NCBI GenBank assembly: GCA_964390555.1
Contig: CAYMJU010000125.1
Span: 53,940 to 117,939, forward strand
Source of the DNA: an uncultured Acidimicrobiales bacterium
GTDB taxonomy: Bacteria; Actinomycetota; Acidimicrobiia; Acidimicrobiales; SHLQ01
Direction: 5' to 3'
Length of the DNA: 64,000 nt
This document shows, piece by piece, positions 38,970-60,611 of this stretch. Position 1 is the first letter of the stretch; every line of letters starts with the position of its first letter. Both the position numbers and the translations under genes were made by a program. The notes beneath the pieces are model-generated. The model worked only from the letters and a program-made list of their open reading frames with translations. It was not told where the DNA came from and did not search any database.

Positions 38970-39680
38970 TCAGAGTGCTCGGCGGCGACGCTCGGCCATC
39001 CGCGCCGCCGCCGCGGCGACCTCGGTCCGGCGGTCCATGCTCAGCTTGTCGAGCATGTTCGACACGTAGTTCTTGATCGTCTTCTCGGCTAGGTACATGG
39101 TCTCCGCGATCTGGCGATTCGACCGACCTTCTCCGATCAACTCGAAGATCCGCCGTTCCTGATCGGTCAGTCGAGCCAGCAACTGATCGTCCTCGTCGCC
39201 ACGGCTGGCGCGGGCTCGCGCTTGTTTGACCGTCGCGGCGTCGAGCGTCGGCCGGCCGGCCGCTATCGAGCGGAGCGACGACACGATCTCGTTGCTGCGC
39301 AACTCCTTCAACGCGTAGCCCTGGGCACCGGCTTCGGCCGCCGCGACCACCGCCTCGTCGTCGGCGAACGACGTGAGGATCAACACGGCGAGGTCGGGAT
39401 GACGCTCTCGCAACCGGCGGCAGGCATCGACACCGTTACCGTCGGGCAGTCGAACGTCGAGCACGGCGATGTCGACCTGACCGGGCCCGATCCGGGCCAG
39501 GGTCTGTTCAACCGTGCCCGCCTCGCCGACCACCCGGAACTCGCCAGTCGACTCGAGGAGCTCGCGCAGACCCTGGCGCACGATCTCGTGGTCGTCGAGC
39601 AGGAACACGCGCACCGGGTCTCGATCCTCGGCGTCGCCGGTGTCCTCCATTGCGGCCATTTCAGCGCTCGTCATGCCCAT
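38970..39680 (-). CDS. devR: NarL/LuxR-family response regulator, DevR/DosR orthologue
   Basis: ORF 38970-39731 trimmed to ATG 39680. VRVFLLDDHEIVRQGL, DIAVLDVRLPDGNG and LTDQERRIFELIGEGRSNRQIAETMYLAEKTIKNYVSNMLDKLSMDRRTE closely track M. tuberculosis DevR as I recall it. Confidence 0.85.
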   Translation of the reverse strand: MGMTSAEMAAMEDTGDAEDRDPVRVFLLDDHEIVRQGLRELLESTGEFRVVGEAGTVEQTLARIGPGQVDIAVLDVRLPDGNGVDACRRLRERHPDLAVLILTSFADDEAVVAAAEAGAQGYALKELRSNEIVSSLRSIAAGRPTLDAATVKQARARASRGDEDDQLLARLTDQERRIFELIGEGRSNRQIAETMYLAEKTIKNYVSNMLDKLSMDRRTEVAAAAARMAERRRRAL

Positions 39681-39715
39681 GGCGCAACTGTCGAGCACCA
39701 CATGTCGCTCACGTA

Positions 39716-39729
39716 GGGCCCAAAGTCCC
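39716..39729. promoter_or_regulatory. Candidate DevR/DosR-like operator in the devR / ATPase divergent region
   Basis: GGGCCC-AA-AGTCCC lies about 43 nt upstream of the devR-like ATG (39680) and about 110 nt upstream of the ATPase ATG (39833). Confidence 0.45.
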
Positions 39730-39832
39730 ACGGATCATCCCGGAGTTTGTTGCCCGGGTGACCATCGGCCCTGGCCCGGACTGGTCGCCCGACCCACGAT
39801 GAGCACCACCACGATGCAGAGGGGATGCGCGG

Positions 39833-42406
39833 ATGAACGATCCGGGGCTCAGAGGGCGAGCCGATAGGCGAGCCCTCCAATGTGACAGTGGCATTTCTCG
39901 ACTGCGCCAGCAGGCGAGCGAAACCGATCGGAAGCTGAAACAGTCACCTAGCGATCCGGGGCTCAGCGCACTGGAGGCCGCGAGGCGACTGGCCGACGAC
40001 GGACCGAACGCTGTCCCGCTGCCCTCGCCACCGCGGCTCCCGTTACAGATCCTCCACGCCGTCCGCCAGCCATTGTCCCTCGTGCTTGTCGCCGCGGGCC
40101 TGGCCACGGCACTCGTCCTCGACGAGCTCGTCGAGGGCCTGGCCATCGGTGGCGTGGTGGTACTGAACGTCGCCGTTGAGGTGGTGCTCCAGCGGCGAGC
40201 AACATCGGCCCTGGCTGCGCTCGCCGAGCTCACCAGCCCGAAGGCGACCGTCCGGCGCGCCGGTGTGGCGCGGGTCATCGACGCCGCCGATCTCGTCCGA
40301 GGCGATGTCGTCGAGCTGGCCGCGGGCGATCGGGCACCCGCCGACATCGAGCTCACAGAAGGCTCGCCCCTCGTCGTCGACGAGTCGATCCTGTCGGGCG
40401 AGTCGGCGCCGGTGACACGTCATGCCGATGGCGATTCTGAAGAAGCGCTCGTCCGGGGCGGAACGATGGTGCACCAGGGATCCGCCTCGGGTGTCGTGGT
40501 CGCCACCGGAGCCGCGACCGCGATCGGCAGCATCGCCCGATCCATCCAGACCGAAACCACACCGCCGCTCGTCGACGAGCTCCGCTCGATCGCGGTGGCC
40601 CTCAGCGTGGGAGCCATCGCGTTGGGAACGGTGCTCGGTCTACTCGTCGCCCGACGGGGAGACGCCGACGCGGGCGACGCTCTGCTGGCCGTCGTCGCCC
40701 TGTCGGTCGCCGCCATACCCGAGGGCCTCCCAACCACGGTGATCGCTGCCCTGGCCCTCGGCGCACGAGCGATGGCTCGACGCGGCGCCATCGTGCAGAA
40801 CCTGGCCGCGATCGACGCTCTCGGCGCCACTTCCGTGCTGTGCACCGACAAGACGGGGACGATCACGACGGGGCGACTCCGACTCGATGGAGTCCATCCG
40901 CTCGATGGTCGAGGTGACGACCTCTGGACGGCCATTGCCCACTGCCATGACGCCCACGACGGGCTCGGCGATCCGATAGACGTGCTGGTCGCGGCCGCGG
41001 CGGCCGATCGAGGGGTACCGGCAGGCGTCCGGCTGAACAGCCGCCCCTTCGACGGGTTGGCGCGGTCGATGGCCGTCGTGACGCTCGACTCGGACGCGAC
41101 GCCGGTCCTCATCGTCAAGGGCGCGCCCGAAGGAGTGTTGACGCGCTGTGACCCCGGACCGGACGCGGTGCGCCTCGCCGAAATGGCCGAGGGATTGGCC
41201 GCGGCCGGTCAACGAGTGATCGCCTACGCCAGCCGAGCCAGCGACGACCTCGACGCGGCGGGCCTGCGGCCGCTGGGCGTCGTCTCGTTCAGCGAGGAGA
41301 ACAGGCCCACGGCGGCGCGCACAGTGCAAGGGTTTCACGACGCGGGCATCCGCGTCGTCATGGCGACCGGTGACAGCCCGATCACCGCCACGGCGGTCTG
41401 CCGCCGTGTGGGACTTCCGGTGAGAACTGTCTATTCGGGCCTCGACGACCACCATCACGGCGCCGATCTGCGAGACGCCGATCTGGTCGCGAGGGTCGAT
41501 CCCCTCACCAAGTTGGCCCTGATCGACGCCCACCGCTCCGCGGGTCACGTCGTCGCCATGATCGGCGACGGGGTCAACGACGCTCCGGCCCTCAAGCGCG
41601 CTGACGTGGGTGTGGCGGTGAGCGGTTCGGGGACCGACGTGGCGCGGGCCGCGGCCGACGTCGTCTTGACCGATGGCGATCTCGAGACGCTGCTCGTCGG
41701 CATCCGAGAAGGACGGCGCATCTACCGGAACCTCAAGGTGGCGACGGGCTACCTGTTGTCGGGCAACGTCAGCGAGGTGCTGGTGTTCGTAGGGGCACTG
41801 ATCGTGTTCCCCGACGTCGCGGTGCCGCTCCTGCCGCTTCAGATCCTGTGGCTGAACCTGATCACCGACGGCCTGCCGGCGATCGTGCTCGGGATCGACG
41901 ACCCGCCGCACGAGCCTCTGCACTCGCGCCCGCGCGGGCCAGGTGATGAGATCCTGGCTCGACCGGCGCAGCTCCGGATCGCGGGACGAGCGACCGTCAT
42001 CACCGCGATCGTGCTGGCCTCGACGTGGCTCGTGACCGACGGTTCGGCTGAAGGATCGATCAGGACCCAGCTGCTGTTGTCGCTCGGCTCGGCCCATATG
42101 TTGCTCGCGCTGATCGCCCGATCCGAGCGCTGGACGTTCGAACGCGGCTGGGCGCGTTACAAGCCCGTGTTGCTCGCCATCTCCGGTTCGGCCGTCGTGC
42201 ACGCGCTCGCGTTCGTCACGCCCCCCGTGCGCTCGTTGCTGGACCTCGAACCCGTGCCCGCCGATGGGTGGTTGGCCGCCGTCGGTGGCCTCGTCGTCTT
42301 GCTGGTCGCGGTCGATGGCGCCCGCGCCCTCGACCGTCTTCGATCGAACCGCGGCGCTCGGTCAGGGCCAGACCTGGGTGCCGGCCAGACCGCGGCAGGC
42401 CGCTAA
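39833..42406 (+). CDS. P-type cation-transporting ATPase (P2, CtpF-like), N-terminus interrupted in frame by repeat element E2
   Basis: 857 aa with CTDKTGTITTG, MATGDSP and GDGVNDAPALKRADVG. Codons 7-44 are the inserted element plus the duplicated DPGL codons. Confidence 0.9.
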   Translation: MNDPGLRGRADRRALQCDSGISRLRQQASETDRKLKQSPSDPGLSALEAARRLADDGPNAVPLPSPPRLPLQILHAVRQPLSLVLVAAGLATALVLDELVEGLAIGGVVVLNVAVEVVLQRRATSALAALAELTSPKATVRRAGVARVIDAADLVRGDVVELAAGDRAPADIELTEGSPLVVDESILSGESAPVTRHADGDSEEALVRGGTMVHQGSASGVVVATGAATAIGSIARSIQTETTPPLVDELRSIAVALSVGAIALGTVLGLLVARRGDADAGDALLAVVALSVAAIPEGLPTTVIAALALGARAMARRGAIVQNLAAIDALGATSVLCTDKTGTITTGRLRLDGVHPLDGRGDDLWTAIAHCHDAHDGLGDPIDVLVAAAAADRGVPAGVRLNSRPFDGLARSMAVVTLDSDATPVLIVKGAPEGVLTRCDPGPDAVRLAEMAEGLAAAGQRVIAYASRASDDLDAAGLRPLGVVSFSEENRPTAARTVQGFHDAGIRVVMATGDSPITATAVCRRVGLPVRTVYSGLDDHHHGADLRDADLVARVDPLTKLALIDAHRSAGHVVAMIGDGVNDAPALKRADVGVAVSGSGTDVARAAADVVLTDGDLETLLVGIREGRRIYRNLKVATGYLLSGNVSEVLVFVGALIVFPDVAVPLLPLQILWLNLITDGLPAIVLGIDDPPHEPLHSRPRGPGDEILARPAQLRIAGRATVITAIVLASTWLVTDGSAEGSIRTQLLLSLGSAHMLLALIARSERWTFERGWARYKPVLLAISGSAVVHALAFVTPPVRSLLDLEPVPADGWLAAVGGLVVLLVAVDGARALDRLRSNRGARSGPDLGAGQTAAGR
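39838..39966 (-). mobile_element. Element copy E2 (39851-39950, inverted relative to E1) with flanking perfect 15-bp direct repeats
   Basis: CGATCCGGGGCTCAG occurs at 39838-39852 and 39952-39966, 114 nt apart. The interior is homologous to E1. No transposase lies nearby and I found no terminal inverted repeats. Confidence 0.6.
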
Positions 42407-46893: not shown

Positions 46894-48348
46894 TCAGAAT
46901 CCGCCGAGGGCCATCAGTTGCTCCGACACCAGCGCGGCGAGATCGCCGGGCGCCAGCGCAGTGTCGAGGACCCGAGCTTGCGGCCATGGGTCGCGTCCGG
47001 CGGCCAGGTGATCGACCAGATCGGGCGTGGCGTCAGACGGATTCCAGGGACTCGCGAGCCGGCGAGCGATGCGTTCGCGGGCCACGGTCGCATCGAGCCG
47101 ACACTCGATCTCGTGAAGCCAACCGCCGTGGCGCCAGGCCAGGGCCCGCGCCCGCTCGCGTTGTGACTCGCAACTCCACGTCGCGTCCAGAATCACACTC
47201 TCGCCCCGATCGAGCAGCACCTCGGCCTGGCGGATCATCTCGTCGTAAACTGCAGCGGTCATCTCGGTGGTGTAGATCCCCTCTCCCGGGGCGGCGAAGG
47301 CGTGGGTGTCGTGACCGAGACCGGCCAGGTCCTTTCGCACCTCATCGGACCGCACGGCCGACCAGCCGAGCCGCTCGCCGAGATCCAGCGCAAGGGTCGA
47401 CTTGCCGACACCGGCGCCTCCGCCCACGAGAACCAGGTGCACCTGACCCCGGGCCAGGTGATGGGCGCACAACTCGTGGTAGCGCTGGGCCAGCGACGCG
47501 GACTCCGCATCGCCCTGCTCGTAGCGAAGGCACGCGACCTTGGCCCGGACGTGAGCCCGATAGGCGACGTAGTGGTGGGCGAGCGAGCTCGGATGGTGCT
47601 CATAGGAGTGCTGCTGGTACGCGGCCATGAGTACCCGCGCCGAAGCCGGGCCGGACAGCCGATGCAGGTCCATGGCCAAGAAGGCCACGTCGCACAGCAC
47701 GTCGGCGATCCGCAAGTCGTCCCGAAAGGCCAGGCAGTCGAGGATCCGGGGGCCGTCATCGAGGCAGAAGATGTCATCGGCCAGCAAGTCACCGTGACCG
47801 TCGCGGACGAATCCCTCGGCAATGCGGTGGTCGAACAGTGCTTCGCGTCCGGCGAGGAACGCCCGGGCGAGCGCCGCTACCTGATCGATCGCAGCCCCAG
47901 CGATCACCCGGTCGCGGAACCGCTCGAGCGTGCGCAGGTTGTCCTCCCAATTTGCCGCCACCGCGTCGCGGGTCGCCGACGACGGATCGCTCGCCGGAGG
48001 TTGACCGGCGTGGAACGCGGCCACTCGCCGGCCGACCGCACGGACGGCGTCGGCGAACTCCGGCTTGTCGACCAGCGCGCTCAAACGGCGGTCGGCGGGA
48101 AGCCGCTTCATGACGATGAGCTGGTCGACCAACTCGCCGTTCTCGAAGACGTCGCCCAGACCCAGGTACACATCGGGCGCCATTCGCCGGTTGAGTTCGA
48201 GCTCGCGCTTCGCCGCGTGCAGGCGGACGTCACGATCGCGGTGGTCGAGGAACCCCATGTCGACGGGCTTGAGCAGCTTGTACGCCCGATCGGGCGTGAA
48301 GAAGACCCGAGAGATGTGGGTCTCGACGGCGTCGACCGAACTGGTCAT
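46894..48348 (-). CDS. Bifunctional aminoglycoside-phosphotransferase-like kinase / P-loop ATPase (Rv2004c-like)
   Basis: 484 aa. The N-terminal APH-like fold has [20 protein letters not shown] and [11 protein letters not shown]. The C-terminal P-loop is [14 protein letters not shown]. The start overlaps the ppsA stop. Confidence 0.75.
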
Positions 48349-50648
48349 CGCCGGGCGGCCTCCACCAACACCCGCTGCTCGGCCGCCGCTATCACCCGGC
48401 GAGTGGCCAGCGCGGCATCAGGGTCGACCGACACCGACCCGATGCCGAAACGCACCAGGTGCTCGGCGAACTCGGGGCGGTTCGACGGCGCCTGACCGCA
48501 CAGCGACGAGCTGAGCCCGTGGTCGCGGCACTGAGCGATGATCTGACCGATCGCCCACAACACTGCGGCGTCGGCTTCGTCGAACAACTCCGCGCAGATC
48601 TCAGAATCGCGGTCGACGCCAAGCATCAGTTGGGTGAGATCGTTCGATCCGATCGACACCCCGTCGATGCCTAGCGCGGCATAGTCGCCGATGCGATGGA
48701 CCACCGACGGCACCTCGGCCATGACCCAACGGTGCATTCCCCGATGGTTCCCGAGCGGGCTCTCATCCACCGCATCGAGGCACGCCTCGAGCTCCCAGGC
48801 CGTGCGCACGAACGGGATCATGAGGTGCAAGTTCGGGTGCTCGTCTCGCGCTCGGGCAAGGGCGCGCAGCTCCATGGCGAACGTCTCGGGCTCGCGGATG
48901 TAGCGGTAGCAGCCCCGGTACCCGATCATCGGGTTGGCCTCGATCGGCTCGAACGCGTCGCCGCCGGCGAGCTCGCGGAACTCGTTGCTGCGGAAGTCGC
49001 TTGTGCGGTACACGACCGGGCGCGGGGCGAATGCGGCGCAGATCGTCTTGAGGTCCCCGACCATGCTCGCCACGAACTCGTCAGACCGACCGTCAGCGAG
49101 AAGCGCCTTCGGGTGGCGGCCACCGAGCGCCGATGTCAACATCAGTTCCCCCCGCAGCAGGCCCACACCATCGACGGGGAGAGCCGCGGCGGCGACGGCA
49201 CCATCGGCCAGGGCGAGGTTGACGTAGAGGCGTGTCGCCAGCGGGGTGTACTCCGAAGCCGACGCCGAGACCGACTGCGTCGTCGTTGTGACAACGCTCG
49301 GCGTCGCGGCAACCGGAGCGCCCACTCGTCCCCGGTACACCACGCCCGCGGCGGCGTCGACCGTCACGAGGTCGCCGTCGCGCAGCACCTGGGTCGCCCG
49401 GCGGGTGCCGACGAGTCCCGCGATTCCCAGCTCGCGGCTCACGATCGCCGCGTGGCACGTCGATCCGCCCGCGTCGGTGATCAGGCCACCGACGCGTCGC
49501 AACACCGGCATCCAGTCTGGCGACGTCTTCTCGGCGACCAGGATCTCGCCATCGTTGAGACGCGCCCCGTCCTTGGGCGATCTGAGGATCCGTACCACCC
49601 CCGACCGTGAGGCCCGGCCGATCCCAAGTCCGTGCAGCACCGCCTCTGGGGCGCCGGTCGCCGGCTCGGCGAGCGTCGTGATCGGCCTCGACTGGAGGAC
49701 GAACAACTCGCTCCGCGCGTAGGCCCATTCGATATCTTGCGGGGAGCCGTAGTGATCCTCGATCCGGCGACCGACCCGAGCGACAGTGCCGATCTCGTCG
49801 TCGGACAGCACCCGCCGATCGGCATCAGCTGGGTCGAGCTCGACCCGCTCGTCACCACCTTCGACGCCTCGGCGCAGGAGGAACGCCTGATGCCCGACGC
49901 GAAGCTCGCGCATCGCCATCGTGGAACGCTCGACCCGGTAGGTGTCGGGTTCGACGGCGCCGGACACGACGACCTCACCGAGTCCGAAGGCGGCTTCGAT
50001 AACCAGGTGAGCGCGAGCGGGGTCACCGGGCTCGACGGTGAACATCACACCCGAGCGATCCGAGTCGACCATCTGCTGGACCACTACCGCGATCGCCGGC
50101 TCCGCGGCCAACGCCCGTTCGGCGCGGTATGCGACCGAGCGGTCGCCCCAGAGCGAAACCCAGCATCGGCGAACCCGGTCGAGCAACGCATCGGTACCCG
50201 TCACGTTGGTGAACGTCTCGTTCATTCCGGCAAACGAGGTCTCGGCGGTGTCTTCGGCGGTCGCCGAGGAGCGGACAGCGACCGACAGCCGGTCGCCGAT
50301 CTCGCGGTAGTGCCCTTCGATCGCCTGGGCTGCTGGCCCGGGGATGGTCACCGCACCGACGATCTCTCGGGCGCGGGCCGCCAGGCGAGCCAACGCGTCG
50401 GGGTCAGCGTGGATCGCGTCCTGGGTGATCTGTTGAAGTTCGGCCCGCGCGCCCGCGGCGACGATCGCGTCGATGTACGCGGCGGCGGTCACGACGAACC
50501 CGGGTGGCACGGGGAAACCGGCCGAGACGAGCTCGCCGAGGTTCGCACCCTTGCCTCCTGCCGATGCCACGTCGGCGAGCGTGATGCGGTCGAGTCCGAC
50601 CACGGCCTCGATCCGGAGCTCGGGGTCGGCGGTGCTTGCAACGCTCAT
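48345..50648 (-). CDS. ppsA: Phosphoenolpyruvate synthase (pyruvate, water dikinase)
   Basis: ORF trimmed to ATG 50648. The N-domain has [10 protein letters not shown], the swivel phospho-His motif is [18 protein letters not shown], and the C-terminal PEP-utilizing TIM domain has [10 protein letters not shown]. Confidence 0.88.
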
Positions 50649-50658
50649 GTCGTGATCG

Positions 50659-51552
50659 TCACGTATCCACTCCGGACTCCCCAGGGACCAAAGGCCCCCC
50701 ACGGCGCAGGTACGCCAGCCAGTACACGATCCCGACCAGCCCGGCGCCGCCTATCACGTTGCCGATCGTGACCGGCACGAGGTTGTCGACCACGAAGCCC
50801 GTCCAGCTCAGATCGGCGGTCCGGCCGGCATCGGCTCCCACCGACGCCAGGTACCCGTCGGGCGACCAGGAGCGCACGAACAACGCGGTCGGGACGAAGT
50901 ACATGTTCGCGACGCTGTGCTCGAAGCCCAGGGCGACGAACGCCGCGACGGGCGGAATGACGGCGACGACCTTGTCGGTCAGCGTTCGGGCGGCCAGGCT
51001 CAGCCACACGGCCAGGCACACGAGTGCGTTGGCGAGGACGCCGAGCAGGATCGCGGGCACGAAGTCGAGGTCGAGCTTGGCTCCCGCTATGTCGATCACG
51101 CGACGGGCGACGGCTCCGTCGCCTTGGCGGTACTGCTCCGCCCCGACCACGAGAGCGGCCGTAGCGACCGCGCCGGCAAGGTTGCCGGCGTACACGATCA
51201 CCCAGCTCCGGAGGAGCGTGCGGATGCGCACGCGTCGGCTCGCGACCGCCATGACGACCAGGGTGTTGCCGGTGAACAACTCGGCCCCGGCGGCGACCAC
51301 GAGGGCGAGGCCGAGCGCGAACGTCACGCCCCCGAGCAGCCGGGACACCCCGAACGCCGTGTCGCCGCCGGCCGTCACCACGGTCGAGAACGCCGCACCC
51401 AGGGAGATGAACGCGCCGCCGAGCACCGCGAGCACGACCATCCGATCGATGGGCATGGATGCCTTGGCGACGCCCACGGCCTCGGCGCGCCGAGCCATCT
51501 CGGGGGGTAACGGCGCGTCGCCGCCGGGTTCGGGCTCGTCCACCACCGACAC
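50659..51552 (-). CDS. Formate/nitrite transporter (FNT) family channel
   Basis: The ORF runs to 51612, but I prefer GTG 51552. [38 protein letters not shown] aligns with FocA/NirC N-termini, and there are six or more TM segments. The substrate (formate or nitrite) cannot be resolved. Confidence 0.85.
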
Positions 51553-51579
51553 GCTGCGCGCGGAGCCACGGGCGCGGCA

Positions 51580-51626
51580 GGGACCTTCGGCCCTTTTCGA
51601 ACCCGGCACCACGGGACCATCGTCCG
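51580..51626. promoter_or_regulatory. Two candidate DevR/DosR-like operators in the FNT / acsA divergent region
   Basis: GGGACC-TT-CGGCCC lies at 51580-51593 and GGGACC-AT-CGTCCG at 51613-51626. The intergenic region is only about 78 nt long. Confidence 0.4.
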
Positions 51627-51629
51627 GTC

Positions 51630-53369
51630 ATGGCGCGTGTGACACCGAACCTCGAGGACTACGACCGCGCCCGGCGAACCTTCTCCTGGGACCAGGCGCG
51701 AGCTGAGCTCCACGGGTCACGGTCGGGCGTGAACATCGCTGATCTGGCGGTCGTGCGCCACGCCGAAGGTCGGCGTCGAGACACCACGGCGCTGCGATGG
51801 CTCGGGCGATCCGGCGACCGCCATGACATCACCTACGGCGATCTCGAGCAGCGCACCGCCCGCTTCGCCAACGTGCTCGGGGCGCTCGGCCACGGTCCCG
51901 GCGTCCGCGTGGCAACGCTGGCAGGGCGGATCCCCGAACTGTACGTCAGCGTCCTCGGCGCGCTCCGGGCCGGCGGCGTGGTGTGCCCGCTCTTTCCAGC
52001 GTTCGGACCGGACCCCATCCGGCAACGGCTGAGCCTGGGTTCGATCGACGTGGTGGCCACCACACCGAGCCAGTACGAACGCAAGATCGCCCCGATGCGC
52101 TCGGCACTCCCAGCCCTCCGGACCGTGCTCCTGTGCGGCGGACCCGGGTCGGGACCGGGCGTCCAAGACCTCGACGAGTTGATGGCCGCGACATCGGACC
52201 GCTTCGACACAGTGGCGACCGGCGCCGACGATCCCGCCCTGATCCACTTCACGAGCGGGACGACCGGCACGCCAAAGGGAGCGCTCCACGTTCACGGAGC
52301 GGTCGTCGCCCACCACATCAGCGGGCAGATGGCACTCGATCTGCGCGGCGGCGACGTGTTCTGGTGTACCGCGGACCCGGGGTGGGTGACGGGGATGTCC
52401 TACGGCATCGTGTCGCCGCTCACCAACGGCGTCACCAGCGTCGTCGACGAGGGCGACTTCGACGCCGACCGGTGGTACCGCACGATCCAGGACGAGCGGG
52501 TCGACGTCTGGTACACGGCACCGACGGCGCTGCGGATGTTGATGCGGATCGGCGCCGATGCTGCCCGGGAGTACGACCTCGGCAGCCTCCGGCTGGTCGC
52601 GAGCGTCGGCGAACCCCTGAACCCTGAGGTCGTGCGGTGGGCCCAGGGCACCTACGGCGTGCCGATCCTGGACAACTGGTGGCAGAGCGAGACCGGCGGG
52701 ATCATGATCGCCAACTACCGGTCGATGCCCGTCAAGCCCGGGTCGATGGGAAAGCCTCTTCCCGGTGTGGACGCGACGATCCTCGAACGCGACGACGAAG
52801 GCGAGCTCACCACCGACGATGAGGGTCACCCGGCCGAGGTCCCGAACGATCAGGTGGGCGAGCTCGCCCTCCGGCGCGGTTGGCCGTCGATGTTCCGCAA
52901 CTACCTCGGAGCCGAGGACCGTTACGCCGGTTCCTTCGCCGGCGACTGGTACCGCACCGGCGACCTGGCCCGGCGCGACGCCGATGGCTACTACTGGTTC
53001 GTCGGGCGAGGCGACGACGTCATCAAGTCGGCCGGACACCTGATCGGTCCTTTCGAAGTTGAGTCGGTGCTGATCGAACACCCGGCCGTCTCCGAAGCAG
53101 CGATCATCGGCAAACCCGACCCGACCGCCGGCCAGGTGATCAAGGCGTTCGTACGATTGGCTCCGGGCATCGAACCAGGCCCAGAGGTGATCGCTGACAT
53201 CATCGCGTTCAGCCGGCGTCACCTGGGCACCGTCGCGGCGCCCCGCGAGGTAGAGCTCGTCGATCAGCTGCCCCGGACGCGCAGCGGCAAGATCATGCGC
53301 CGGCTGCTCAAGGCCCGCGAGCTCGGCCTACCCGAAGGTGACCTCTCAACGTTGGAGTCCGGCGCATGA
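51630..53369 (+). CDS. acsA: Acetyl-CoA synthetase (short AcsA type, AMP-forming)
   Basis: ORF 51459-53369 trimmed to ATG 51630. It is collinear with Bacillus AcsA as I recall it: [61 protein letters not shown] and [15 protein letters not shown]. Confidence 0.88.
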
Positions 53370-54349
53370 CCGCCCTGACGCTTTCGGCCGAGGACGCCAG
53401 ACATCTTCTCGGCGACATGATCCGGATCCGTGCCATGGAGGAACGGTGCGCCGAGCTGTACGGGGAGCAGAAGATCCGGGGCTTCCTGCACCTCTACATC
53501 GGCGAGGAGGCGGTGGCGACCGGCGTGATCTCGCAGCTCCGGTCCGACGACGCCGTCGTCGCCACCTATCGCGAGCACGGGCACGCCCTCCTCAAGGGCA
53601 TCCCGGTCGAGCGGATCATGGCCGAGATGTTCGGCAAAGTCACCGGCTGCAGCGGGGGCAGGGGCGGATCGATGCACCTGTTCGACGCTGAGCGGCGGTT
53701 CTACGGCGGCAACGCCATCGTCGGCGGCCATCTTCCGCTCGCCGCCGGGCTGGCCCTGGCCGACTCCATGCAGGCGCACGACCGCGTGACGGCCTGCTTC
53801 TTCGGCGAAGGCGCCGTCGCCGAGGGCGAGTTCCACGAGGCGATGAACCTCGCCGCGCTCTGGACGTTGCCGGTGCTGCTTTGCTGCGAGAACAACCTCT
53901 ATGCCATGGGCACCTCGCTGACATCGAGCGAGTCCGAGACGAACCTCACCGCCAAGGCCATGTCGTACGGGGTTCCGGCCTGGACCGTCGATGGCATGGA
54001 CGTGCTGGCCGTTCGCACGGCGACTGCGCGAGCGCTCGACGTCGTCCGCAATGGCGGCGGGCCGGTCTTCCTCGAGCTGCGTACCTATCGGTTCCGGGCC
54101 CATTCGATGTTCGACCCCGATCTCTACCGGGACAAGGACGAGATCGAACGGTGGCAGACACGCGACCCGATCGAGCTGTTCGGCGCCCGCTTACGAGACG
54201 ACGGGGTGCTGAGCGACGAAGACGTCGAGGAGCTGTGGGCTCTGGCCCGTGACGAGGTCGAGCGCGCCGTCGAGTTCGCGGAGGCTTCTGAGCTCGAACC
54301 GGTCAGCACCCTGACGTCGTTCGTATATCGACGCGAGGGTCGGTCGTGA
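53366..54349 (+). CDS. pdhA: 2-oxoacid (pyruvate/acetoin) dehydrogenase E1 alpha subunit
   Basis: 327 aa with an ATGA overlap with acsA. The ThDP motif is [31 protein letters not shown]. Confidence 0.9.
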
Positions 54350-55329
54350 CGGGGGCCGAGCTGACCTACCGCGACGCGATTCGCGACGCCCTTCGGGAGG
54401 TGTTGACCGCCGACGACCGGGTATTCGTCATGGGCGAGGACGTCGCCGACTACGGCGGGGCCTACGCCGTCACCCGCGACCTGCACCAGGAGTTCGGCCG
54501 CGACCGGATACGCAACACGCCGCTGTCGGAGTCGGGATTCGTCGGCGCGGGGATCGGCGCTGCCATAGGCGGCATGCGTCCGATCGTCGAGATCATGACC
54601 GTGAACTTCAGCTTGCTCGCGCTCGATCAGATCGTGAACACCGCCGCCACCCTGCTCCACATGTCGGGCGGCCAGGTGAACGTGCCGATCGTGATCCGGA
54701 TGGCGACCGGGGCGGGGCGACAGCTGGCGGCACAGCACTCCCACAGCTTCGAGGGATGGTACGCCCACGTCCCAGGGCTGCGGGTCGTGGCACCAGCGAC
54801 CGTCACCGACGCTCGCTGGATGCTTGCGACCGCGGTGGCCGACCCCGATCCCGTGATCGTCTTCGAGCACGCGTCGCTCTACAGCACGCGGGGAAGCCTC
54901 GACGGCGGCGATCCGGTCGACATCGACCGCGCTGCCGTGCGGCGCTCGGGAACCGATGTCACGATCGTGACCTATGGCGGCAGCCTGCCGAAATGTCTCG
55001 ACGCCGCTGGCTCCCTGGTCGCCGAGGGGATCAGCGCCGAGGTGATAGACCTCCGGTCGCTCCGACCGCTCGATCTCGAGACCGTCGTCTCGTCGGTGAC
55101 CCGCACCACGAGAGCGGTCGTCGTCGATGAGGCATGGCGCACCGGGGGCCTGTCAGCGGAGATCACGGCGTCGATCTCGGAGCACTGCTTCTGGTCGCTC
55201 GACGCCCCGGTTGCGCGGGTGTGCACCGCTGAGGTGCCGATCCCCTACGCCCGACATCTCGAGGAAGCGGCGCTGCCCCAGGCCGGCACCATTGCGGCCG
55301 CGGCTCGCGAGGTCGTCCGTGGCCGCTGA
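54346..55329 (+). CDS. pdhB: 2-oxoacid dehydrogenase E1 beta subunit
   Basis: 327 aa with a GTGA overlap. [15 protein letters not shown]...VFVMGEDV and [12 protein letters not shown] are typical E1-beta (transketolase-like) motifs. Confidence 0.9.
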
Positions 55330-56617
55330 CACCGAATCGAACCAGGACTTCCGGCTGCCGTCGCTCGGCGCGGACATGGAGGAAGCGACGATCCTCGAAT
55401 GGCGCGTGAAGCCTGGTGATCGCGTCGCGCGCGGCGACATCGTGGCCCTGATCGACACAGAGAAGTCCGAGATCGACCTCGAGATCTGGCACGGTGGAGT
55501 AGTCGAGGAGCTCGTGGTCGGCGTCGGCGAGGTGATCCCCGTCGGGACTGTCCTCGCCCGGCTCCGCAACGACGAGCAGTCGGTGACGGCGAGCCCGAAA
55601 ACCGGTTCGGCGCCGACTGTGCACCACGACAGCCCCCGCGTGCTCTCGCCACTCGTACGCCACCTGGCCGAGCAACGCCATGTCGACCTCTCCCGCGTCG
55701 CTGGGACGGGCCCCGGCGGTCGGATCCAGCGGAGCGACGTGAACCAAGCGACTGCGGTGACCGCGGCACCGGCAGCGACCGCGGTTCGTGCCTCGCCGCG
55801 GGCTCGGGCGCTGGCGCGCCGCATCGGCGTCGATCTGGCGTTGGTGACCGGCACGGGTCCCGCCGGCGCGATCGTCGCCGCCGACGTCGAGCTCGCCCAC
55901 TCCACCGCGAGCATTGCTCCAGCGGCATCGACCCCTCAGCCCGATCGGGAGCGTGCCACCTCGCCCCGGCGGGCGATCGCCGAGCTGATGTCGAGGTCGA
56001 ACCGCGAGATCCCGCACTACTACGTGGCGACCGAGATCGATTGCACCCGGGTGATGGCTGACCTGACCAGGGCCAACGAGGAGCGGCCGGTCACCGCTCG
56101 CGTACTCGGTGTCGTTCCCCTCCTGATCGCCGCGGCCCGAGCAACACGCGAACATCTCGAATTGAACGGGTTCTGGCGTGAAGGCGAATTCCAACCCGGA
56201 GACGGCGTCCACCTGGGAGTCGCTGTCGCCAAGCGCGGCGGCGGGTTGGTCGCCCCCGCGATCCGCGACGCTGACATGCTCGGACCCGACGAGATGATGC
56301 GAGCGCTGACCGAACTGGTCGGTCGGGCGCGCGCCGGTCGGCTGCGCAGCTCGGAGATGGAGTCACCGACGATCACCGTCACGAGCCTCGGCGACCGCGG
56401 GCCCACGCTCGTGCTCCCCATCATCTATCCACCGCAGGTCGCAATGGTCGGCTTCGGCCGGGTCGTCGAGCGACCATGGGTCGTCGATGGCGAGCTCGCA
56501 GTCCGCACGGTCGTCACCGCCAGCCTCGCCGGCGATCACCGTGCGACCGACGGCGATCGCGGGGCACGCTTTCTCACCACGCTCGCAACTGTCCTGACCG
56601 AGTTGGAGATCCCATGA
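55319..56617 (+). CDS. pdhC: Dihydrolipoamide acyltransferase (E2)
   Basis: GTG 55319 lies in frame in ORF 55127-56617. The protein has a lipoyl domain ([18 protein letters not shown]...[11 protein letters not shown]), two subunit-binding domains (SPLVRHLAE...GTGPGGRI and SPRARALAR...GTGPAGAI), and the catalytic DHRATDG. Confidence 0.85.
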
Positions 56618-56859
56618 ACCCCACCGATGCCCGAGCGATCGTCGTCGAGGCCGTCCGGTCGATCGCGCCTGGTGCCGCGATCGACGAGCTCGGCCCGGCC
56701 GACGACCTGATCGACGCGCTCGAGCTCGACTCGATGGATCTGTTGAACATCGCCGTTGCCGTCGCCGAGCGGACCGGCATCGAGATCCCCGAACGTGACT
56801 ACCCGAAGCTGACCAGCATCGAGGTGTTCGCCGCCTACCTGGTCGCCGCGGCCGGCTGA
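56614..56859 (+). CDS. Acyl carrier protein-like (phosphopantetheine-binding) protein
   Basis: 81 aa from ATG 56614 (ATGA overlap with the E2 stop). LIDALELDSMDLLNIAVAVAERTGIEIP contains the D-S-x attachment motif on a four-helix-bundle-like pattern. Confidence 0.75.
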   Translation: MNPTDARAIVVEAVRSIAPGAAIDELGPADDLIDALELDSMDLLNIAVAVAERTGIEIPERDYPKLTSIEVFAAYLVAAAG

Positions 56860-59501
56860 TCGTGGTGAGGCCGGGGCGGCCGTCGTCCCCGGTGCCACTT
56901 GTCGAAGCGGTCCGCCAGCAGCACCATCGGCGCCGAAGCGAGGGCGACCACCCAACCGGCCAGAGGGGGGTTGGCCTGCTCGAGCTCGTCGGCCACCGGT
57001 CCCGCGAACAACATCACCGCTGAGAGTCCGAGGCTGAACAGCACGGCCGGCGGCAGCAGTCGATTCGAGCGCCAACCCAACGACCCGATGCGACGCGTCG
57101 AGCTCCGGCACGCGAACGCGTTCGCAGCCTGCCCAATGACCACTGCCATGAAGGCCGCCCCCGACGCCGACTCGAGCGTCGCTCCCTCGGGGAACCCGTC
57201 TCCGGGCCGCCAGCCCGCGGCGGCGAACGAGACGAGGAACGCCATCATGCTCATCGCGGCCTCGGTCGGGCCGAGCACGCCGAAGGCTCGCCTGGCGACC
57301 GTCGCGTTGAGCAAGCGGCCGCTGACCGGTGGACCCTCGAGCAACGTCGGCGACGACGGCTCCGCACCCAAGGCAACGGCCGAGAGCGTGTCGGTCCCGA
57401 TGTCGAGGGCAAGGATCTGCATGACGCCGAGGGCCAGGGGGAACCGCCCGCCCGACAGCGCCCATACGACGAACGGGGTGAGCTCGGCCACGTTGTCGGT
57501 CAGGTGATAGGTGAGGAACCGCCGGAGGTTCACATAGCTGGCCCGGCCCTGCTCGACGGCACCCACGATCGAGGCGAAATGGTCGTCGAGCAGCACGAGA
57601 TCGGCGGCCTCGCGGGCGACGTCGGTGCCCGATCGTCCCATCGCCACCCCGATGTCAGCCTCGTGCAGCGCGGGGCCGTCGTTGACACCGTCGCCCGTCA
57701 TGGCGACGATGTGACCGCGGCGACGGAGAGCCTGGGCGATGCGCAATTTGTCCTCGGGCGACACGCGGGCCACCACCACCCCATCGTGATCGACCATCGT
57801 GGCAATCGCCCCCAGGTCGTCGGGCAGGTCGGCGCCGACGAGCACGGGATCGCCCCGACGTCGGAGTCCGACCTGGTCCGCGATCGCCGACGCCGTAACC
57901 GGGTGATCGCCGGTGATCATGGCAACCTTGATGTGTGCCCGCCGGCAGGCGTCGATGGCGTCGCGCACATCGTCGCGCGGCGGGTCTTCGAGTCCCACGA
58001 GACCGAGCAGATCGAGGTCGCGTTCGACTTGGTCGGGGTCGTCGCCATCACGCCATCGCCGACCGTCGCCGCGCGCGATGGCCAGCGCCCGCAGTCCCCG
58101 GTCGGTCATCGAACTGAGCGCGTCGCCGGCCTCTTCGACGCTTCGGCATCGGGGCAAGACGGCATCGGGCGCGCCCTTGACGAGGAGGGCGCCGTCGACC
58201 ACGACCGACATGCGGCGCCGCCGGGGATCGAACGGGAACCGGCGCGACGGCGGGTTCGCCAACCGGTCGGCGCCGGTATCGATCTCACAGCGCCGGGCGA
58301 GGACGTCAAGGGCCACCTCCATGGGATCACCGATCGGCACCCACTCGCCGTCGGTCAGCGCCGTCCGACCGTTCGAGCAGCGCGCCGCCGCCCGCGCCAG
58401 CTCGACCACCGCGGCTCGCGCGGCCGCAATCTCACCAGCGGCCGGCGCGGCCGCAACACACTCGACATGACCGGCGGGGTCGTAGCCGACGCCGTGAACG
58501 GTCGCCGAACCCGACGGCGTCCAGACCTCGATGACGGTCATCTGGTTCCTCGTCAGCGTGCCCGTCTTGTCGGTACATATGAACGTGGTCGATCCGAGGG
58601 TTTCCACGGCATCGAGGTGCCGCACGAGCACCTGGCGGCGAGCCATCTGCTCGGCGCCCCACGACAGCGACAGCGTGACGGTGGGCAACAGGCCTTCGGG
58701 CACGAGAGCGACGGTCACGCCGATCGCGAACACGAACCCCTCCGATGGCGCGGTGCCGAGCAGCCAGGCGAGTCCGAAGAAGCTCACGCCGACCCCAACC
58801 GCGATCACCGCGATCGTGCGCACGACGCGAGCGAGCTCGACCGTCAGGGGGCTCGTCGGATCCGGCGTGACGGTGGTGAGTCGGGCGATCTCGGCCAGAC
58901 GAGTACGGGTTCCGGTGGCGGTCACGACGACCGTCGCCTCGCCCTCCACGACGAACGTGCCGCCGAACGCCCGATCACCCTCGACCAGCGCCGTCGGCAC
59001 GCTCTCGCCGGTTAGCAAGGATGTGTCGACAAGCAACTGGTGGGACTCGGCGACCGTCACGTCGGCCGGGACACGATCGCCGGGTCCCAGCTCGAGGACG
59101 TCGTCAACGACGACCGAGTCGGCGTCGACCTCGACGAGCTGGCCGTCGCGGCGAGCGATCACGCGCCGCGGCAGCAGCGAACGAAGGCGGTCGGCCGCCG
59201 CGGTCGCGCGTCCCTCCTGCGCGAAGGCGAACGCCGCGTTGAAGACGATGACGACGATGATCGCGATGCCGAGCTCGGGAAGTTGAGCCACGAAGGCCAG
59301 CCCGCTCGCCACCCACAACATCAGAGCGAAGAAGTGGAAGAGCTGACCCGCGAACCGCCGCGACGCGCTCGGCCGGCGAGGTGACGGCAGACGGTTGGGG
59401 CCGTCCGTCGCGAGGCGGGTCGCTACGTCGGTCGCGCTCAGGCCCTGGTGACCCCGACTCGGGGTGCCGACCATCGATCGACCCGGGGGATCGGCGTCCA
59501 C
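56835..59501 (-). CDS. P-type cation-transporting ATPase (P2, CtpF-like), second paralogue
   Basis: 888 aa with the N-terminus QGLSATDVATRLATDGPN, plus CTDKTGTLTRNQM, MITGDHP and GDGVNDGPALHEADIGVAMG. Confidence 0.9.
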   Translation of the reverse strand: MDADPPGRSMVGTPSRGHQGLSATDVATRLATDGPNRLPSPRRPSASRRFAGQLFHFFALMLWVASGLAFVAQLPELGIAIIVVIVFNAAFAFAQEGRATAAADRLRSLLPRRVIARRDGQLVEVDADSVVVDDVLELGPGDRVPADVTVAESHQLLVDTSLLTGESVPTALVEGDRAFGGTFVVEGEATVVVTATGTRTRLAEIARLTTVTPDPTSPLTVELARVVRTIAVIAVGVGVSFFGLAWLLGTAPSEGFVFAIGVTVALVPEGLLPTVTLSLSWGAEQMARRQVLVRHLDAVETLGSTTFICTDKTGTLTRNQMTVIEVWTPSGSATVHGVGYDPAGHVECVAAAPAAGEIAAARAAVVELARAAARCSNGRTALTDGEWVPIGDPMEVALDVLARRCEIDTGADRLANPPSRRFPFDPRRRRMSVVVDGALLVKGAPDAVLPRCRSVEEAGDALSSMTDRGLRALAIARGDGRRWRDGDDPDQVERDLDLLGLVGLEDPPRDDVRDAIDACRRAHIKVAMITGDHPVTASAIADQVGLRRRGDPVLVGADLPDDLGAIATMVDHDGVVVARVSPEDKLRIAQALRRRGHIVAMTGDGVNDGPALHEADIGVAMGRSGTDVAREAADLVLLDDHFASIVGAVEQGRASYVNLRRFLTYHLTDNVAELTPFVVWALSGGRFPLALGVMQILALDIGTDTLSAVALGAEPSSPTLLEGPPVSGRLLNATVARRAFGVLGPTEAAMSMMAFLVSFAAAGWRPGDGFPEGATLESASGAAFMAVVIGQAANAFACRSSTRRIGSLGWRSNRLLPPAVLFSLGLSAVMLFAGPVADELEQANPPLAGWVVALASAPMVLLADRFDKWHRGRRPPRPHHDQPAAATR

Positions 59502-59585: not shown

Positions 59586-60611
59586 TCACGAGGGCAGCGG
59601 TACCGACCAGTCGACGACGGTGCCCGTCGGTTGGTGGTGGCCGATGATCAGCCGACCGCCGTGGCGGGCCGCTCGCTCCCCCATGTTCCGCAATCCGTTC
59701 CCACCCGTGCGCTGGCGAACGAGGCCGACCCCGTCGTCGGTCACCACGATCCGTAGCTCACCGTCGCGAACGGACACGCTCACGTCGAGAGTCGATGCCT
59801 CCGCATGGCGAACGACGTTGGAGATCGCTTCCCGGAACGTGTTGAGCAGATCAACCCGTAGCTCGCCGTCGATGAAATCATCGACGGGACCGGAAAGTTG
59901 GAACCGTGGCTCGACGCCCATGAGAACGGCGGCATCTTCGACCACGCTCCGTAGCTCGGCCGAGATCGGTGACGACACGACGCGCGACTTGAGTCGAAAG
60001 ATCGACAGCCGCAGCTCACGAATTGCGTCGTCGAGCTGATCGACGGCGGCGAGCAGCCGGGCCGATGCAGCTTCGGGGACGGTGGCCGCAACCGCCTGGA
60101 GCCCGAGCCCGATCGAGAACAGATGCTGTATCACGGTGTCGTGAAGCTCACCGGCCATGCGCTCGCGCTCGGCGAGCAGGGTCGCAGCCGCGCGGGCTTC
60201 GGCCCGCGCTGTCTCACGTTGAGATTCGAGGGCTTCTCGCTCGGTCACATCTCGGACCGAGGCGACCACGACGACGGTCCCATCGAGATCGCCGGGACTG
60301 AGCGAGATCTCGGCCGGAAAGATAGAGCCGTCAGCCCGGCGGGCGAGCAACCGAATGCCTTGACCCATGGTCCGGACCGCGGGCTCCCGGGCGTACCGCC
60401 GACGGTGGCTCCGGTGTACGCGTCGATCCCGCTCGGGAATCAACTCCTCGACCGGTCGACCGAGCAGGTTCGAACGGTCGTAGCCGAACATCGCCTCGGC
60501 CTGCCGGTTCACGAACACCAGGCGACCCTCGCCGTCACAGACCACGACGGCGTCAGGCGCCGACTCGAGGACCTGCCACCTGTCGTCCCCACCCAGGCTC
60601 TCGACTCGCAC
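59586..60611 (-). CDS. PAS-domain sensor histidine kinase (HisKA_3/NarX-DevS output class), no adjacent regulator
   Basis: 341 aa with a GTG start and no TM segment. It has a PAS core (VVVCDGEGRLVFVNRQAEAMFGY...RRADGSIFPAEISLSP), the H-box ELHDTVIQHLFSIGL, and an ATPase domain with DDGVGL and GNGLRNMGERA. Confidence 0.85.
   Translation of the reverse strand: MRVESLGGDDRWQVLESAPDAVVVCDGEGRLVFVNRQAEAMFGYDRSNLLGRPVEELIPERDRRVHRSHRRRYAREPAVRTMGQGIRLLARRADGSIFPAEISLSPGDLDGTVVVVASVRDVTEREALESQRETARAEARAAATLLAERERMAGELHDTVIQHLFSIGLGLQAVAATVPEAASARLLAAVDQLDDAIRELRLSIFRLKSRVVSSPISAELRSVVEDAAVLMGVEPRFQLSGPVDDFIDGELRVDLLNTFREAISNVVRHAEASTLDVSVSVRDGELRIVVTDDGVGLVRQRTGGNGLRNMGERAARHGGRLIIGHHQPTGTVVDWSVPLPS

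Follow-up and report, generated by a model that had tools for sequence, protein, structure and literature searches.

A 64-kb stretch of DNA from an uncultured Acidimicrobiales bacterium (contig CAYMJU010000125.1, called here, at its full length, the window) carries five overlapping genes that form a self-contained, horizontally mobile unit, referred to below as the cassette. The genes encode an acetate-activating enzyme (AcsA), the alpha and beta subunits of a pyruvate dehydrogenase (PDH)-type E1, a lipoyl-bearing acyltransferase (E2) and a dedicated acyl carrier protein (ACP). What use would a pyruvate dehydrogenase have for a carrier protein of its own? The answer favoured here, held tentatively and at somewhat less than even probability, is that the cassette forms a low-oxygen acetyl node, in which the ACP would carry acetyl between E2 and AcsA as a private acetyl-thioester.

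The five genes and their products

The five genes are arranged as follows.

51630..53369, plus strand: acsA, a Bacillus subtilis-type AMP-forming acetate-activating enzyme of 579 aa, assigned with Pfam and NCBIfam.
53366..54349, plus strand: E1 alpha, the thiamine diphosphate (ThDP)-binding subunit, of the PDH y-type (mitochondrial/alphaproteobacterial lineage).
54346..55329, plus strand: E1 beta, assigned with Pfam and NCBIfam and by comparison with human PDH E1 beta.
55319..56617, plus strand: E2, with a lipoyl domain (T-x-K), two peripheral-subunit-binding domains and an acyltransferase core with DHRxxDG.
56614..56859, plus strand: the dedicated ACP of 81 aa, with the signature LELDSMDLLN...GIEIPERDYPKL.

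Every junction is an overlap that can be read directly from the sequence: ATGA between acsA and E1 alpha (53366-53369), GTGA between E1 alpha and E1 beta (54346-54349), an 11-nt overlap of the E2 GTG start (55319) with the E1 beta stop (55327-55329), and ATGA between E2 and ACP (56614-56617). Shine-Dalgarno-like GGAG/GAGG motifs are found upstream of E1 alpha, E1 beta, E2 and ACP, and none is found before acsA.

AcsA is made of AMP-binding and AMP-binding_C domains (Pfam) and scores 830 bits against the acetate-CoA (coenzyme A) ligase model PRK04319, whose cut-off is 729. E1 alpha matches E1_dh (PF00676, 284 bits) and the PDH-specific model TIGR03182 (E1 alpha, y-type; 443 bits, cut-off 394), and E1 beta combines Transket_pyr with Transketolase_C and reaches 396 bits with PRK09212 (cut-off 321). 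In E2, Pfam recognises a lipoyl domain, two E3_binding stretches and a 2-oxoacid_dh core carrying the DHRATDG motif; the protein scores under all E2 equivalog cut-offs of NCBIfam. The ACP matches PF00550 (33.5 bits, cut-off 20.8), with its Ser inside a DSMD motif. Its AlphaFold2 model (pLDDT 91.4) shows the four-helix fold, in which this Ser opens helix II, and matches solved ACPs, AcpM included, with a TM score of 0.85 on superposition. The labels given by PGAP/NCBIfam are generic (acsA, pdhA, "dihydrolipoamide acetyltransferase family protein" and "acyl carrier protein"), and a scan of NCBIfam matched no curated family for the ACP. The operon had first been described by a model working from the letters of the window and their open reading frames (ORFs), the sequence-only reading. 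That description holds for the five overlapping plus-strand genes, their coordinates and their junctions; each of the five products matches its Pfam hidden Markov model (HMM), and the small ORF that had been taken for an ACP passes the PP-binding HMM and is conserved across hundreds of genomes.

Distribution, linkage and mobility

ACP relatives were scanned in one genome per species, which gave at least 581 of them, and the locus counts that follow concern the 80 best genome loci found with the ACP. In 51 of the 80 the order is Acs-E1 alpha-E1 beta-E2-ACP; a further 17 show E2 followed by ACP in a locus that ends at a contig end, two have AcsA directly followed by ACP, one is decayed, and nine have the ACP placed elsewhere. 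The two AcsA-ACP loci, both from Acidimicrobiales (L014 6253-10581 and L034 177-4442), adjoin PpsA and are without E1 and E2, and in L076 the gene order is E2-ACP-Acs. The hosts include Acidimicrobiia, Solirubrobacterales and other Actinomycetota, Alpha-, Beta- and Gammaproteobacteria, Chloroflexota, Acidobacteriota and Myxococcota. Identity to the window proteins is 55-66% for AcsA, 56-75% for E1, only 40-50% for E2, and 37-57% for the ACP. The sequence-only reading had presented the arrangement as a rarity, and this has to be given up: with the same order in 51 loci, many phyla and plasmids among its carriers, the cassette is widespread and mobile.

Its linkage was also approached from the other end. 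A reciprocal search of plasmids with AcsA returned 33 records at 53% identity or more, with all 27 ACP-positive plasmids among them, and three further records opened from these hits (Rhodococcus sp. DK17 pDK1, Sinorhizobium fredii pSF45436d and Burkholderia savannae) all have an annotated ACP right after E2. Since a search that starts from AcsA thus leads to ACP-bearing records, the linkage is near-obligate in the records examined. The cassette is present on at least 30 plasmids, one of which, the large conjugative plasmid of Desulfotalea psychrophila LSv54 (L090 5017-11346), belongs to a strict anaerobe; there, a lipoate-protein ligase gene, the sole metabolic neighbour, comes right after the ACP and is followed by the relaxase genes traI/traJ. 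Three metagenomic loci obtained through an identical-protein look-up hold the same module between unrelated flanks.

Some copies are modified or decaying. On the plasmid of Leisingera methylohalidivorans (L088 6845-8842), E1 alpha and E1 beta are fused into one protein of 665 aa. Decayed or frameshifted cassettes occur in L030 (7048-8228), L091 and L093, and in a Streptomyces sp. (L092 3049-3650) only a 106-aa C-terminal fragment of E2 and the ACP are kept, beside CBS/BON and universal stress protein (USP) genes. A search with the last 90 aa of E2 brought up many fragments of 86-157 aa, and the three that were looked up are these decayed or frameshifted cassettes (L091, L093) and the truncated E2-plus-ACP remnant (L092). 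The L092 remnant is reminiscent of Rv1734c of Mycobacterium tuberculosis, an 80-aa E2 C-terminal fragment of the DosR regulon, and a link between the two is conceivable.

An exhaustive HMM search gave 1048 ACP clusters (50% identity) at E <=1e-10, almost all of them stand-alone proteins of 80-110 aa; no fusion of the ACP to E2 or AcsA was seen in the best 150 of these clusters. In Bdellovibrionota/Opitutales, ACPs 37-43% identical sit in another conserved cluster at seven loci, so the ACP family is not exclusive to the cassette. This cluster is distinct from the cassette and has the look of an unrelated system for lipids or polyketides.

L063 6733-13121, and likewise L060, L069, L071, L072, L079 and L086: ketosynthase, ACP, flavin amine oxidase, FabH-like protein, alpha/beta hydrolase and AMP-ligase.

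The flanks vary from locus to locus, and the cassette has no regular sixth member. When all flanking ORFs of 86 loci were clustered, no further gene was common to more than 11 of them, and no gene for lipoamide dehydrogenase (lpd), phosphopantetheinyl transferase (PPTase), ketosynthase or aldehyde dehydrogenase was conserved beside the cassette. The larger ORFs scanned across the window likewise include no lpd, PPTase, polyketide synthase (PKS) or non-ribosomal peptide synthetase (NRPS), and the redox-disulfide motif of Lpd is found in no ORF of the window or of loci L001-L086. The sequence-only reading had described an operon that lacks E3 and stands apart from any NRPS or PKS. The second point stands, for the scanned ORFs of the window and for the clustered flanks. 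Of the first, it is right that no lpd lies in or near the operon, including directly downstream in relatives; as an anomaly it is weak, E2 having kept two E3/E1-binding domains, which fits the recruitment of an Lpd encoded elsewhere.

What the enzymes would act on

Both E1 subunits are closest to mitochondrial PDH. E1 alpha scores 244 bits with its human PDH counterpart against 134 with that of branched-chain 2-oxo acid dehydrogenase (BCKDH), and E1 beta 285 against 194. This makes pyruvate the most probable substrate and an acetoin system improbable. The cassette could otherwise be imagined to cleave acetoin, or another 2-oxo or 2-hydroxy-keto compound, in the manner of AcoABC, with AcsA recovering acetate from the released aldehyde. 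The E1 alpha/beta-E2 architecture does resemble AcoABC, an alcohol dehydrogenase gene follows the ACP in Streptomyces fungicidicus, and acsA of B. subtilis presumably lies beside the acu acetoin-utilisation genes; against this, E1 alpha passes the trusted cut-off of TIGR03182, the human comparisons point to PDH, and no acoL, acoR, acoX or aldehyde dehydrogenase gene is conserved nearby. We regard acetoin cleavage as improbable.

The nearest solved structure to AcsA is a 572-aa acetyl-CoA synthetase (PDB 9g79, 529 bits), which we take to be AcsA of B. subtilis. The cassette enzyme keeps the Trp-Trp (WW) acetate pocket, the A10 catalytic Lys and SGKIMRR. This pocket excludes long acyl chains, a difficulty for any proposal that octanoyl or lipoyl groups from the ACP are used to lipoylate the E2 of the cassette. 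Octanoyl-ACP is the normal donor for LipB, and the ACP resembles mitochondrial and FAS-type ACPs; however, no lipB, lipM or lipA was found in the flanks of the 86 loci, and the sole lipoylation gene beside a cassette is the lipoate-protein ligase of Desulfotalea, a salvage enzyme that works independently of ACP. Such a role is very improbable.

Two features of AcsA concern its thiol substrate, and they point in different directions. At the A8-loop position of Salmonella enterica Acs Arg526, all 49 cassette AcsA sequences of the 49 compared have Leu (window 53100-53160, residues ~491-510), while the Arg is present in the five closest solved Acs structures. This Arg is highly conserved and stabilises the thioester-forming conformation (PMC10455477). 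Judged from the alignment, its replacement by Leu sets the family apart at the half-reaction in which the thiol substrate takes part. On the other hand, the window protein and the listed cassette variants keep the Arg that aligns with S. enterica R584, a residue contacting the 3'-phosphate of CoA, and a basic RK pair is retained in the CoA-loop region. With the CoA 3'-phosphate Arg kept, AcsA may well use CoA. In E2, the lipoyl Lys of T-x-K, DHRxxDG and a basic R.R.G.LR segment are kept in all 44 aligned cassette sequences; the last of these is, we assume, the CoA-binding segment of ordinary E2s.

These retained features belong to the case for a more conventional explanation, in which a low-oxygen PDH isoform and AcsA both make ordinary acetyl-CoA and the ACP is an accessory rather than an acyl acceptor: a structural or regulatory subunit, or a source from which housekeeping lipid synthesis would draw acetyl or longer acyl groups (a storage lipid serving as an electron sink, for example). 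In its favour, acsA and pdhA are equivalog-level calls of PGAP/NCBIfam, cassette copies retain the CoA-binding Arg in AcsA and the basic segment in E2, E2 has its two E3/E1-binding domains, ACPs are known as structural partners of unrelated complexes, and a gene for a wax-ester/diacylglycerol acyltransferase (WS_DGAT) lies near one locus. This explanation nevertheless does not say why almost all copies, in different phyla and on small plasmids, should keep a translationally coupled, dedicated ACP; it leaves the invariant A8 Arg-to-Leu change unexplained, and the flanks of the 86 loci show no conserved ketosynthase or acyltransferase that such an ACP could serve. We hold it to be unlikely, though far from negligible, and the chief rival of the acetyl node.

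The ACP and its partners

Throughout the family the Ser of DSMD is invariant and the surface segment GIEIPERDYPKL is conserved. E2 and ACP are translationally coupled in most loci, and gene order ties the ACP to E2 and also to AcsA, as in the two loci that have no E1 or E2 (L014, L034) and in the E2-ACP-Acs locus (L076). Co-variation was followed by a mirror-tree test on 36 loci having all five proteins. ACP distances correlate best with those of AcsA (r 0.67) and of the E2 catalytic domain (0.59). Once E1 distances are regressed out, the partial r of the ACP is 0.45 with AcsA and 0.37 with the E2 catalytic domain (permutation p <=0.0005), and 0.16 with the lipoyl domain; AcsA and the E2 core co-vary at 0.58. 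Co-variation of this kind is inflated by shared ancestry, and these values therefore lend weak support only to a triad of ACP, E2 core and AcsA.

Genomic surroundings and low-oxygen promoters

The first 24 kb of the window, whose G+C content is ~69%, consist of housekeeping genes (ilvB, ilvD, gatB/gatA, a PASTA kinase gene and ligA), in an order that we take to be typical of actinomycetes. The cassette lies further on, in an island that also holds an AAA_33 ATPase, an M50-CBS protease, a pyridoxamine-oxidase-like protein and the following features.

38970..39731, minus strand: NarL/DosR-family response regulator (Response_reg and GerE domains), with the palindrome GGGCCCAAAGTCCC at 39716.
39833-42406: second P-type cation ATPase, divergent from the DosR-family regulator, with the palindrome GGGCCCAAAGTCCC upstream of it.
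48345..50702, minus strand: PpsA (phosphoenolpyruvate synthase), its start probably internal to the ORF, preceded by the palindrome GGGACCAAAGGCCC at 50684-50697.
50659..51552, minus strand: FocA-like channel of the formate/nitrite transporter (FNT) family, between ppsA and acsA and divergent from acsA, with an uncertain start (51498-51612).
51580..51593, no strand: DosR/DevR-type palindrome GGGACCTTCGGCCC in the divergent FNT/acsA promoter region, starting 50 nt before the acsA ATG.
56835..59501, minus strand: P-type cation ATPase, convergent with the ACP gene, the 3' ends overlapping by 25 nt (56835-56859).
59586..60611, minus strand: PAS and HisKA_3 sensor kinase, a candidate partner of the NarL/DosR-family regulator.

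The channel scores 261 bits with TIGR04060 (FocA) against 80 bits with NirC, and could therefore move formate or acetate; it stands beside the cassette only in this window.

Other neighbours recur. Besides the window, P-type cation ATPases occur near the cassette at 10 loci and PpsA at six genome loci, adjoining the cassette in L014, L015, L016 and L034 and lying inside the flanks of L054 and L077; ppsA is also found in the Leisingera and Rhodococcus DK17 cassette records. NfeD with SPFH is found at six loci, a PRPP-synthetase-like gene at six and a Rv2004c-like AAA_33 ATPase at five. Six Acidimicrobiaceae/Solirubrobacterales genomes have a V/A-type ATPase operon just 3' of the cassette, and an AhpD-like gene (carboxymuconolactone decarboxylase family, CMD) lies near it at seven loci.

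L009 8848-15700, and likewise L011, L015, L030, L040 and L041: V/A-type ATPase operon.
L008 1890-3080 (immediately 5' of acsA), and likewise L009, L014, L016, L034, L050 and L052: AhpD-like gene.

AhpD of M. tuberculosis draws electrons from dihydrolipoyl-E2, and the AhpD-like protein could offer the reduced lipoyl arm another way of giving up its electrons.

In cultured hosts the company is that of stress and energy genes: five USPs, Hsp20, a nitroreductase, PncB, an AAA ATPase and a cation ATPase in S. fungicidicus; ppsA, PfkB, an AAA ATPase, a USP and a GAF sensor kinase in Rhodococcus DK17; ppsA, PfkB, a USP, Hsp20, a CBS protein and a Crp/Fnr regulator in Leisingera; a USP, BON and PncB in S. 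fredii. From this gene content, the surroundings of the cassette are low-oxygen stress islands.

Promoter motifs point the same way. Within the window, perfect 8/8 matches to the DosR-type half-site are found only at 39716, 50684 and 51580, all inside the island; the sites are taken as intergenic from the gene coordinates, the one at 39716 falling at the 5' end of the called regulator ORF. The centre of GGGACCTTCGGCCC lies 43.5 nt upstream of the acsA ATG, a position which, by the usual spacing between such palindromes and the transcription start, and together with the missing Shine-Dalgarno-like motif, would fit a leaderless transcript starting at the ATG. The exact 14-mer GGGACCTTCGGCCC recurs in L015, where it lies 132 nt before acsA, and within the island of S. 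fungicidicus. A loose DosR-like motif is not enriched in the window (32 found against 41 expected), and a narrower pattern gives 3 matches against 0.8 expected, a weak excess. Statistical enrichment of the loose motif was dropped as an argument for this reason, and only the exact palindromes and their recurrence weigh; DosR control in actinobacteria is thus plausible, not proven. FNR boxes (TTGAT-N4-ATCAA, a match of at least 9/10, no more than 310 nt upstream of acsA) are present in 10 of 58 loci, where ~0.9 would be expected. In three of those 10 the box is perfect, for a background rate of 0.016 per 310 nt. Upstream of acsA, S. fredii has two FNR boxes; B. savannae has a TTGAC-N4-GTCAA box. 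This apparent convergence on oxygen-responsive control across phyla is a stronger argument than the DosR motif alone. The DevR-like boxes noticed in the sequence-only reading have in this way gained weight as a link to low oxygen, through the recurrence of GGGACCTTCGGCCC in L015 and S. fungicidicus and the FNR boxes of Proteobacteria.

The same surroundings bear on another possible role, the supply of a C2 (glycolyl) unit on the ACP for a non-ribosomal peptide or other natural product, as in the QncN/L/M (quinocarcin) and SclQ1-4 (scleric acid) pathways. The part list is the same, an E1-like and an E2-like protein with a discrete ACP (PMC6335953). However, no NRPS, PKS, condensation enzyme or PPTase was found in the window ORFs scanned or beside the cassette loci, the cassette keeps company with stress and energy genes that have oxygen-responsive promoters, its E1 resembles that of PDH, and it has a conserved extra member, AcsA, that neither Qnc nor Scl possesses. 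So little speaks for such a supply role that we give it next to no weight.

The proposed acetyl node

The favoured low-oxygen acetyl node would be switched on when oxygen is scarce, by DosR-type regulators in actinobacteria and by regulators of the FNR/FixK/Anr type in Proteobacteria. From homology, the PDH-type E1 alpha/beta would decarboxylate pyruvate and acetylate the lipoyl arm of E2. The E2 core would then hand the acetyl to the phosphopantetheine thiol on the co-translated ACP, much as QncL loads QncM, a step suggested by gene coupling, conservation, co-variation and the Qnc/SclQ precedent. AcsA would interconvert acetyl-S-ACP (possibly also acetyl-CoA) with free acetate, using either ATP or AMP with pyrophosphate (PPi), and a housekeeping Lpd, docking on the two binding domains of E2, would re-oxidise the reduced lipoyl arm. 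For a cassette that is complete in itself and moves alone, the simplest arrangement is one in which the carrier is loaded and unloaded inside it.

In a more specific, ATP-forming version of this node, E1/E2 would load the ACP from pyruvate and AcsA, with its A8 Leu, would run in reverse, turning acetyl-S-ACP, AMP and PPi into acetate and ATP. The cassette would then be a novel type of substrate-level phosphorylation module for survival without oxygen, its carrier being regenerated at each turn. The irreversible E1 step could push a private carrier to nearly complete acetylation with the CoA pool undisturbed, and, in the loci that have them, PpsA, the FocA-like channel and the ion-pumping ATPases would feed the module, export its product and spend its ATP. 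Four points favour the ATP-yielding direction: control by low oxygen, the company of PpsA, of an acid channel and of ion pumps that consume ATP, the thermodynamic gain that a private carrier would bring, and a known Acs that is biased towards ATP synthesis (PMC13404658). Taken as a whole, this version is nonetheless distinctly unlikely.

Several observations weigh against the proposed node. The Arg and the RK pair kept in AcsA speak for continued binding of CoA, and E2 has kept its basic R.R.G.LR segment as well. It is not evident where a reversed AcsA would obtain PPi, and PDH yields NADH, which is unwelcome without oxygen. The loci with only Acs and ACP would fit forward loading of ACP or CoA at least as well as the reverse reaction. 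ACPs also serve as purely structural subunits (MmpL5, EmbB, complex I), and the partial Mantel statistics behind the ACP-AcsA-E2 link are raised by shared phylogeny.

Meaning of the cassette

Full-text literature searches found no published description of the cassette; a Bradyrhizobium PhaR paper and the lxa-locus paper were considered as such and set aside, both being concerned with other genes. The pairing of a PDH-type enzyme with an ACP was so far known only from two antibiotic pathways, and here it takes the form of a compact mobile unit, spread across phyla and apparently wired to two classic families of oxygen-sensing regulators. The question it bears on is how strict aerobes (actinobacteria, rhizobia, roseobacters and Burkholderiales) stay energised and viable when oxygen runs out, an ability that underlies dormancy, persistence and survival in soil and sea. 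Should the ACP indeed take the place of CoA, central C2 metabolism would be channelled here in a new way; should it not, one would still have to explain what an ACP does in a PDH operon. Small as it is, and found in strains that are cultured and tractable (Rhodococcus DK17, L. methylohalidivorans, S. fredii, Cupriavidus and S. fungicidicus), the cassette lends itself to direct tests of its function.

Comparison with known systems

Qnc and Scl are the only documented systems in which E1/E2 proteins pass an acyl group from the lipoyl arm to an ACP instead of CoA (PMC6335953). As in the cassette, a ThDP-dependent E1-like enzyme, a lipoyl E2-like acyltransferase and a discrete ACP are encoded together, and the fused E1 alpha-beta of Leisingera recalls QncL-like fusions of E1 parts. 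The Qnc/SclQ systems, compared here by description only, lie inside NRPS clusters, convert a ketose phosphate into a glycolyl unit and have no AcsA. The cassette differs in its PDH-type E1, its fixed AcsA, the lack of an assembly line and its low-oxygen stress context. With no assembly line, an added AcsA and a PDH-type E1, it is therefore not filed as a Qnc-type system, although by analogy it may work like Qnc at the E2-to-ACP step. What is new is the fixed AcsA, the setting of oxygen limitation and the very wide distribution.

With the heterotetrameric-E1 PDH complexes of mitochondria and alphaproteobacteria, the cassette shares E1 at equivalog or subfamily level, the E2 domains and all catalytic motifs; it departs from them in having no E3 in or near the operon at any locus, a divergent E2, and an ACP and AcsA built in. 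Among cassette copies, E2 is only 40-50% identical, whereas E1 reaches 60-75%. It differs from the acetoin dehydrogenase system AcoABCL in that its E1 alpha passes the PDH model and no E3 or aco accessory genes lie nearby. Cassette AcsA is like the B. subtilis-type enzyme (9g79) in its WW pocket, catalytic Lys and CoA 3'-phosphate Arg, and unlike it in the A8 change from Arg to Leu and in being encoded in one operon with E1, E2 and ACP. As the ATP-forming Acs1 of Syntrophus aciditrophicus illustrates, an AMP-forming Acs can become biased towards ATP synthesis through small loop changes (PMC13404658).

The neighbours of the cassette form a cast shared with the regulons of DosR/DevR in mycobacteria, OsdR in Streptomyces and lxa in Burkholderia cenocepacia (PMC3721108): USP, Hsp20, CBS, nitroreductase, PncB, PfkB, cation ATPase and Rv2004c-like AAA ATPase, along with DosR-type or FNR-type boxes. 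The main text of the lxa locus paper does not mention the cassette (PMC3721108). A possible functional analogue, in which an aerobe facing anoxia turns pyruvate into acetate and ATP under FNR-type control, is offered by the pyruvate fermentation of Pseudomonas aeruginosa. To our knowledge, the cassette is not part of the described DosR regulon of M. tuberculosis. In P. aeruginosa, the Anr-dependent fermentation runs through PDH and then Pta-AckA, and so relies on CoA, acetyl phosphate and acetate kinase, with no ACP or AcsA.

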